DNA of 4,883 nucleotides from a virus (IMGVR_UViG_2645727555_000008); one strand, 5' to 3'; shown: positions 342 to 399, numbered from the stretch's first letter. Notes: a model not told the origin generated them from the sequence alone. Translations and numbers: made by a program.

Positions 342-399
342 ATCCTAATAAAGAGATCCATAGATAGATCCTTGTATAGATCAAATAAGATCCCCGATC
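342..399. promoter_or_regulatory. GATC (Dam methylation) site cluster in AT-rich origin region
   Basis: Six GATC sites at 342, 354, 367, 379, 389 and 396 within 58 bp, mostly in repeated (T)AGATCC units; chance expectation is about one per 256 bp. P1-type origins carry clustered GATC repeats required for initiation. Confidence 0.7.

Follow-up and report, generated by a model that had tools for sequence, protein, structure and literature searches.

The window, i.e. the whole stretch of 4883 bases that was analysed, contains a cluster of six GATC (Dam) sites between two tandem DnaA boxes and a set of iterons in front of the gene repA. The DnaA boxes were read from the sequence on the plus strand at 319–335 and overlap by one base. 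The first box (TTATTCACA, 319–327) is a perfect match to the consensus TTATNCACA, and the second (ATATCCACA, 327–335) has one mismatch. The GATC array spans 341–399 (no strand assigned). Its sites start at 341, 355, 367, 379, 389 and 396, which corresponds to start-to-start spacings of 14, 12, 12, 10 and 7, and they lie in AT-rich, heptamer-like units of the form (A/T)AGATC(C/A). Between the array and the iterons there is a GC-rich spacer (GCTGTAAGCCGCGCCACGACTGGTCTGAAGCC, 400–428, no strand assigned), the most stable duplex of the origin.

Iterons were called from the repeat families D1–D5 plus a regular-expression count. Five direct iterons, the equivalent of P1 incC, lie on the plus strand at 438–548, with the core TATGCTGYCAGCGGT and a spacing of 21–23 bp. 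Four are good copies (starting at 441, 483, 504 and 527) and one, TAGTCTGTCAACGG at 462, is degenerate. Twelve further iterons of the same sequence (1654–2195, plus strand, repeat family D1) are the equivalent of the copy-control iterons incA of P1. According to the regular expression, they occupy 1657–2188 and start at 1657, 1678, 1708, 1729, 1759, 1935, 1976, 2017, 2087, 2118, 2148 and 2174. None of the 17 iterons contains a GATC (both arrays scanned, 400–561 and 1654–2200).

The gene for the iteron-binding initiator, repA, is located at 562–1656 on the plus strand and encodes 364 aa from the ATG at 562. The protein matches Pfam Rep3_N above the gathering score (E = 3.9e-9). Its identity is 46% with P1 RepA (278 aa aligned, E = 4e-86) and 49% with pMT1 RepA (E = 3e-106). 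In 99%-identical plasmids it is labelled 'RepB family plasmid replication initiator protein'. The database start is the ATG at 442 (404 aa), from which the reading frame runs through the five iterons. The homology to the RepA proteins of P1 and pMT1 starts after the ATG at 562, and this ATG is kept in the Cronobacter homologue. The true start of repA is thus probably 562, with a product of 364 aa. A 19-nt inverted repeat (95% complementary) connects the region of the second and third iterons (474–492) with a segment inside repA (899–917, TGGCAGAATACGGCGAACC); it could be due to chance or be an internal RepA-binding half-site.

Positions 88–4795 of the window match about 100 plasmids of E. coli and E. 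albertii at 98.5–99.3%. Among the matches listed, the plasmids are mostly ~110 kb in size (range: 62–153 kb) and non-mobilizable. The window also matches the phages PhiR41_1 and CMS-2020a and, in part, Cyrano. These plasmids and phages are SSU5-like phage-plasmids. Downstream of the replicon, six small genes are found on the minus strand (2236–4677). They include a homologue of the 'P1 Cra protein' as annotated in Cyrano (2236–2448), a gene for a DUF7238 protein (3330–3755) and a gene for an SPFH/Band 7 lipoprotein (3847–4677, minus strand) with 76%-identical relatives in the phages P88 and phiP27.

The two ends of the window (1 to ~90 and ~4793–4883) are inverted copies of a ~90-nt sequence (99-nt arms, 97% complementary) that is foreign to the phage-plasmid. 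This sequence is present ~3000 times in plasmids of E. coli and Shigella, and in pCP301 it lies just downstream of an annotated IS1294 ORF. At both junctions, CTTG is followed by ATCGATAGG, and both junctions fall at a GATC. We take CTTG to be the target preference of IS91-family elements. A Sau3AI cloning artefact was considered and rejected because the flanks are widespread plasmid sequence beside the IS1294 ORF and have CTTG junctions. Based on the end matches and the junctions, two inverted IS1294-like (IS91-family) ends appear to bracket the 4.7-kb replicon segment. The left insertion truncates an ASCH-like gene. The IS1294-like end junction was found neither in PLSDB nor in 5426 complete E. 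coli genomes. The finding on the GATC array is unaffected by the nature of the ends.

The window contains a total of 25 GATC sites. Those beyond the array correspond to a rate of 0.0039 per position, or ~0.22 expected sites per 59-bp span. The measured enrichment in the array is ~27-fold, in line with the 'about 25-fold' estimated in an earlier, sequence-only reading of this DNA. The same reading had placed the six sites in 342–399 (58 bp): the number of sites was right, but the start was one base late, and the true span is 341–399 (59 bp). It had also described the array as lying next to DnaA boxes, and the boxes are indeed separated from the first site by 5 nt. The contexts of the sites are, in order, taGATCct, gaGATCca, taGATCct, taGATCaa, aaGATCcc and ccGATCgc. 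The repeated (T)AGATCC units proposed from the sequence alone can therefore be recognized loosely, as AGATC(C/A), in five sites, but not in the last one, which is CGATCG.

The cluster is non-random. The Poisson probability of at least six GATC in one 59-bp span is 1.3e-7, or 6e-4 when multiplied by the length of the window. The window was also simulated 5000 times with a first-order Markov model. Here, the maximum was five GATC per 59 bp, which occurred once, and six were reached in 0 of 5000 simulations. If a threshold of at least four GATC per 59 bp is used, no cluster other than the array is present in 16.7 kb of the closest complete plasmid, and the origin cluster likewise stands alone in 17 kb of P1 and in 8 kb of phage Cyrano. 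A chance cluster or a low-complexity tandem repeat with no function was weighed, as the units are short and rich in AT and slippage can create short repeats. The simulations argue against it, as does the conservation of the site positions over at least 60 origins of different genera while the spacers diverge, and we regard this explanation as practically negligible. Coding across the cluster was also rejected: the ORFs at 224–367 (plus strand) and 323–571 (minus strand) are short, overlap the repeats and fall in the part of the window that is homologous to the non-coding P1 origin.

The duplex stability was calculated as a nearest-neighbour profile over intervals of 40 steps, and the origin profile covered 200–670. 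A stability trough was found at ~300–400, with ~-45 kcal compared to a window mean of -54 +/- 3.9 (93rd–99th percentile of instability). The lowest free energy of the 200–670 profile was -63 kcal, for the 40-step intervals starting at 390–400 (390–430). Hence, the trough directly abuts the most stable segment of the region. The array, which lies in the trough, has the lowest duplex stability in the origin and is therefore the natural place for opening, with a GC clamp toward the iterons.

Positions 313–425 align with the core of P1 oriR with few gaps. In the P1 record (NC_005856), the rep_origin oriR is annotated with five incC iterons, five Dam methylation sites and a DnaA protein_bind site, followed by repA and nine incA iterons. 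The array sites at 341, 367, 379, 389 and 396 correspond to the positions of the annotated 'Dam methylation site 1-5' of P1. At the remaining site (355), the window has GATC and P1 has GGTC, which results in six sites here and five in P1. The DnaA boxes align with the annotated tandem boxes of P1, TTATCCACA and TTATCCAC. Moreover, both origins have GGATAGATCC, the terminal AGATCCC(C/T)GATCG and the spacer motif GCCGCGCCACG.CTGG in common. The order of the parts is also that of P1: DnaA boxes, GATC array, GC spacer, five iterons spaced by ~21 bp, repA and downstream iterons.

There are differences as well. The spacing differs from P1 by 3 nt around site 3. The iteron sequences are unrelated (TATGCTGYCAGCGGT in the window, GATGTGTGCTGGAGGGA in P1), the RepA of the window is 78 aa longer than that of P1 due to N- and C-terminal extensions, and there are twelve downstream iterons instead of nine. 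The carrier is a siphovirus-type SSU5-like phage-plasmid and not P1. At 554–570 (plus strand), two weak DnaA-box-like 9-mers with two mismatches each (GTGTCCACA, 554–562; ATGTCCACA, 562–570) overlap the start of repA; they are poorly conserved in the Cronobacter homologue. P1 has a DnaA-box-like sequence (TATCCACA) at the corresponding place, between the last iteron and repA, so the 9-mers may, on weak evidence, correspond to the second array of DnaA boxes in P1.

Overall, the window has a homologue of P1 RepA (Rep_3/RepE class), five iterons before repA, a second iteron array after it, tandem DnaA boxes at the outer edge and at least five positionally homologous GATC sites before the GC spacer. 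By homology, it carries a true P1-replicon homologue with a different Rep/iteron specificity. The sequence-only reading had compared the cluster with those of P1-type and oriC origins, which are bound by SeqA when hemimethylated and couple initiation to Dam methylation. The P1 type is borne out by direct homology and layout, and the oriC type is not, since oriC-style 13-mer repeats (GATCTnTTnTTTT) are absent from the window. Furthermore, the window has only two strong DnaA boxes and has a Rep protein and iterons, whereas the oriC type initiates with DnaA alone, on many DnaA boxes and three such 13-mers.

For the comparison with related origins, a distant BLAST search with positions 240–565 of the window matched 1607 PLSDB plasmid records. 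We aligned 13 diverse matches with the window and P1, which gave 15 origins and a non-redundant subset of 12. The matches were from Cronobacter, two Klebsiella plasmids, E. coli pF16EC0541-2, Y. pestis pMT1, S. Typhi pHCM2, Buttiauxella, two P1-like E. coli plasmids, an IncY plasmid, two Pantoea plasmids and Lelliottia. The 12 non-redundant origins cover P1, P1-like, SSU5-like, pMT1, Buttiauxella, Pantoea and Lelliottia origins.

GATC was present at site 341 in 14 of the 15 aligned origins, at sites 355 and 367 in 13 each, at site 379 in 12, and at sites 389 and 396 in all 15. In the 12 non-redundant origins, the 24 GATC columns were 98% conserved, compared to 68% for the other 35 columns of 341–399 (Mann–Whitney p = 9e-8). 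The array is thus conserved selectively at its GATC bases, and the alignment indicates that selection acts on GATC itself. In the same 12 origins, the DnaA-box block (319–335) was 81% conserved and the spacer block (400–425) 76%. The DnaA boxes were also found at an equal offset in ~50 further homologous origins.

In addition, a pattern scan was performed on one genome per species (185,579 species), with only sites 4–6 and the spacer CCG fixed. It returned 59 matches, of which 57 were aligned; the other two were too near a contig end and were left out. True homologues in distinct species accounted for 51 of the 57. They were mostly large Pantoea plasmids, and the rest included Erwinia, Kluyvera, Kosakonia, Enterobacter, Buttiauxella and Y. 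pestis. The remaining six, from GC-rich genomes outside the enterobacteria, lacked DnaA boxes and had only 3–5 GATC; they were chance matches and were excluded from the counts. Sites 1–3, which were not constrained in the scan, were also present in 45 of the 51 homologues, at spacings of 13/14, 11/12, 11/12, 10 and 7; the most common combination was 13, 11, 11, 10, 7 (37 times). Since 45 of the 51 homologues have all six sites, six is the usual form of the module and the five of P1 are a variant. Site 1 is missing from some Pantoea origins and site 3 from the P1-like plasmid pL37-2. As P1 works with five sites and some homologues miss one, six sites are not strictly needed.

A cluster of Dam sites upstream of a gene could also be a switch of transcription that responds to Dam methylation, as in pap or IS10, acting on the divergent upstream gene or on repA, and not an origin element. 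The cluster does lie ~100 bp upstream of a divergent ORF on the minus strand (215-aa ASCH-like protein, start near 240). However, no sigma-70-like promoter was found on either strand in 150–700. The upstream genes are also unrelated across the homologues (upfA in P1, an aldehyde dehydrogenase gene in Pantoea, and others in Lelliottia and the SSU5-like elements), whereas the cluster keeps a constant placement relative to the DnaA boxes, the iterons and the rep gene, and it lies inside the annotated rep_origin of P1. We therefore consider a switch very unlikely.

The bases outside GATC are partly conserved too. Five of the six sites have an A at -1, the block AGATCCC(C/T/G)GATC (AGATCCCCGATCG) is invariant, and the spacing is fixed. 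Given the conserved A, the heptamers may have a reader besides Dam and SeqA. It could be DnaA or RepA binding to a single strand of the opened unwinding element, or another host protein. GATC would then be conserved as a piece of the motif of this reader, and methylation would be secondary. There is a precedent in the Rep proteins of RK2 and F, which bind one strand of their own unwinding elements (PMC5043065). As a replacement for a Dam-based role, this explanation is improbable in our view, because the GATC bases are 98% conserved and their neighbours only 68%, and because P1 replication requires methylated DNA, as the title of Abeles and Austin 1987 states. RepA in particular is disfavoured as the reader, since the module is unchanged despite a RepA identity of 46–49% and unrelated iterons. 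Binding of such a factor can coexist with a Dam-methylated origin core and would add to it rather than replace it. The DNA identity of the origin core is ~75–80%, while RepA is 46–49% identical and the iterons are unrelated. This combination fits a module whose readers are host proteins rather than the initiator encoded by the plasmid.

The same core is found in replicons of the pMT1 (Y. pestis), pHCM2 (S. Typhi) and Cyrano type, with six GATC at 13, 12, 12, 10 and 7. It is ~78% identical to positions 265–400 of the window and has the same flanking backbone genes. The iterons differ and are of the TATCCACTATAGAGAG type. In MOB-suite, these replicons are IncFIB and the closest plasmid of the window is rep_cluster_488. 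The SSU5-like backbone occurs either with the P1-like repA/iteron cassette or with the pMT1-type cassette, and the origin core is present in both (Cyrano, 1501–6488; pF16EC0541-2). It flanks the replicon with an ASCH-like gene on one side and the cra-like, DUF7238 and SPFH genes on the other. The comparison suggests that Rep/iteron modules are exchanged on this backbone.

Two tandem copies of the origin core are found in pMT1 (2555–2780 and 2930–3190), each with DnaA box, GATC array, GC spacer and iterons. The distal core has kept six GATC. In the repA-proximal core, three are left and the others have decayed to GAACC, GACCC, GACCC and CGCATC. The pair offers a natural comparison of one copy that is maintained with one that is degenerating.

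The replicons of large Pantoea and Erwinia plasmids have homologous DnaA boxes, six GATC at 13, 11, 11, 10 and 7, an invariant AGATCCCCGATCG and the GC spacer. Their core adjoins an initiator of the RepB/Rep_3 family, as in the window. The carriers differ, being plasmids of 100–950 kb and not phage-plasmids, and the second DnaA box is TTATACAG. A minority of these replicons (P. ananatis group) have GTTC at site 1.

Two well-known origins resemble the window in some respects. In E. coli oriC, GATC sites are also concentrated in the AT-rich unwinding region beside DnaA boxes; methylation favours opening, and hemimethylation allows sequestration by SeqA (PMC2691817; PMC5043065). However, there is no sequence homology between oriC and the window, and initiation in the window also needs a plasmid Rep on iterons. 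By analogy, the array would resemble oriC in its response to Dam and SeqA without belonging to the oriC type. The second is V. cholerae ori2 (RctB), an iteron-type origin which is strictly dependent on Dam methylation and is sequestered by SeqA (PMC6090056; PMC2865523). In ori2, a GATC lies inside each 12-mer iteron, and initiator binding depends on methylation (PMC6090056). In the window, GATC lies within none of the 17 iterons. Consequently, binding of the initiator would not be methylation-dependent here, and methylation would have to act on the unwinding element.

We consider it likely, with P1 as the model, that the six GATC sites are the core, methylated by Dam, of a plasmid origin of the P1 type (an oriR homologue) in an SSU5-like E. 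coli phage-plasmid. For the replicon in the window, we infer Dam dependence, SeqA binding and the exact opening site from the homology to P1. Host DnaA would bind to the tandem boxes at 319–335, and RepA monomers would bind to the five iterons at 438–548. DnaA and RepA, together with a nucleoid protein such as HU, would then open the AT-rich segment at 341–399, and the opening would be bounded by the GC-rich spacer at 400–428. N6-methyladenine on both strands of the GATC sites would be needed for opening or would strongly favour it. The passage of the fork would leave the six sites hemimethylated, and as they are 7–14 bp apart, neighbouring pairs would suit cooperative binding of SeqA dimers. 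Bound SeqA would hide the origin from re-initiation and from Dam until its release and remethylation. The array would accordingly be more than a landing pad for SeqA, by analogy with P1, where it is the opening region and methylation is positively required. The heptamers were reportedly described as critical for P1 origin function by Brendler et al. in 1991, and a methylation-specific protein binding to the P1 core is said to have been identified as SeqA by Brendler et al. in 1995.

Several steps of this mechanism have been described for other origins. That P1 replication needs methylated DNA is stated in the title of Abeles and Austin 1987, cited in PMC2865523, where Abeles, Brendler and Austin 1993 is likewise cited for P1. 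According to Brendler and Austin 1999, from the reference list of the same paper, binding of SeqA requires at least two hemimethylated GATC. At the P1 origin, DnaA is able to open the duplex and RepA greatly helps (PMC5043065), and the in vivo KMnO4 reactivity of the origin requires HU (PMC4980987). The methylated adenines in the 13-mers of oriC are expected to favour strand separation (PMC5043065). SeqA dimers prefer hemimethylated GATC pairs which are about one helical turn apart and on the same face, and there are 9 bp between the GATC sites in the SeqA crystal structure (PMC2691817). As spacings of 14, 12, 12, 10 and 7 are no exact helical repeat, not all sites of the array would lie on the same face. 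In Y. pestis, more than 99% of GATC are methylated, and the four under-methylated loci of pMT1 are not at the origin (PMC13321490). The homologous sites of the pMT1 origin are hence methylated in bulk culture. Together with the conservation of GATC, this lends indirect support to the proposed Dam dependence and SeqA binding.

A gene for a phage-type N6-adenine methyltransferase (197 aa; Pfam PF05869 'Dam', E = 2.5e-38) lies ~15 kb from the origin. It was found in the closest complete plasmid (NZ_CP019002.1, 9167–9760), in Cyrano (27467–28060) and in 177 PLSDB plasmids. P1 carries its own methylase gene, dmt. By analogy, the phage-plasmid may supply its own GATC methylation, and a dependence on the host dam could be masked by the plasmid-borne PF05869 Dam.

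The replicon is a new SSU5-like example of a well-studied kind of origin, and it extends the textbook mechanism without changing it. Among the database records examined, there was no origin annotation at this place, and the labels were 'none' or 'hypothetical protein'. The paper found on the related Klebsiella IncpKPHS1 replicon covers the downstream iterons only, with no word on GATC or DnaA. SSU5-like phage-plasmids are present in ~5% of complete E. coli genomes: of 5426 such genomes, 249 have plasmids that match positions 88–170 of the window, a segment adjacent to the origin. Phage-plasmids are reported to carry antibiotic-resistance genes (e.g. PMC9600943). The analysis defines a minimal replicon (~300–2200), which is useful for vector or curing work.

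The prediction is that establishment of the replicon depends on methylation. To our knowledge, SeqA and Dam are confined to some Gammaproteobacteria, and a dependence on methylation would therefore matter for the host range. The likely control of the origin by Dam and SeqA would also explain why these elements and P1 have a Dam-family methylase of their own.

The core is kept in P1, the SSU5-like phage-plasmids, pMT1/pHCM2 and the large Pantoea plasmids. The use of either the replicon of the window or a pMT1-type one on the same SSU5-like backbone hints at Rep/iteron exchange. A tentative extension, which we put forward as a possibility and not as the expected outcome, is that the DnaA boxes, the six phased GATC and the GC clamp form an ancient cassette read by the host, with six sites as the usual and probably ancestral state, and that Rep/iteron cassettes were exchanged around this core. 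If true, the near-invariant spacing and AGATCCCCGATCG would encode a defined protein–DNA architecture, which would go beyond the presence of many Dam sites and could consist of a specific SeqA oligomer or of single-strand contacts of DnaA. The exchange of Rep proteins and iterons around a fixed core would then be a route for these plasmids and phage-plasmids to escape incompatibility.
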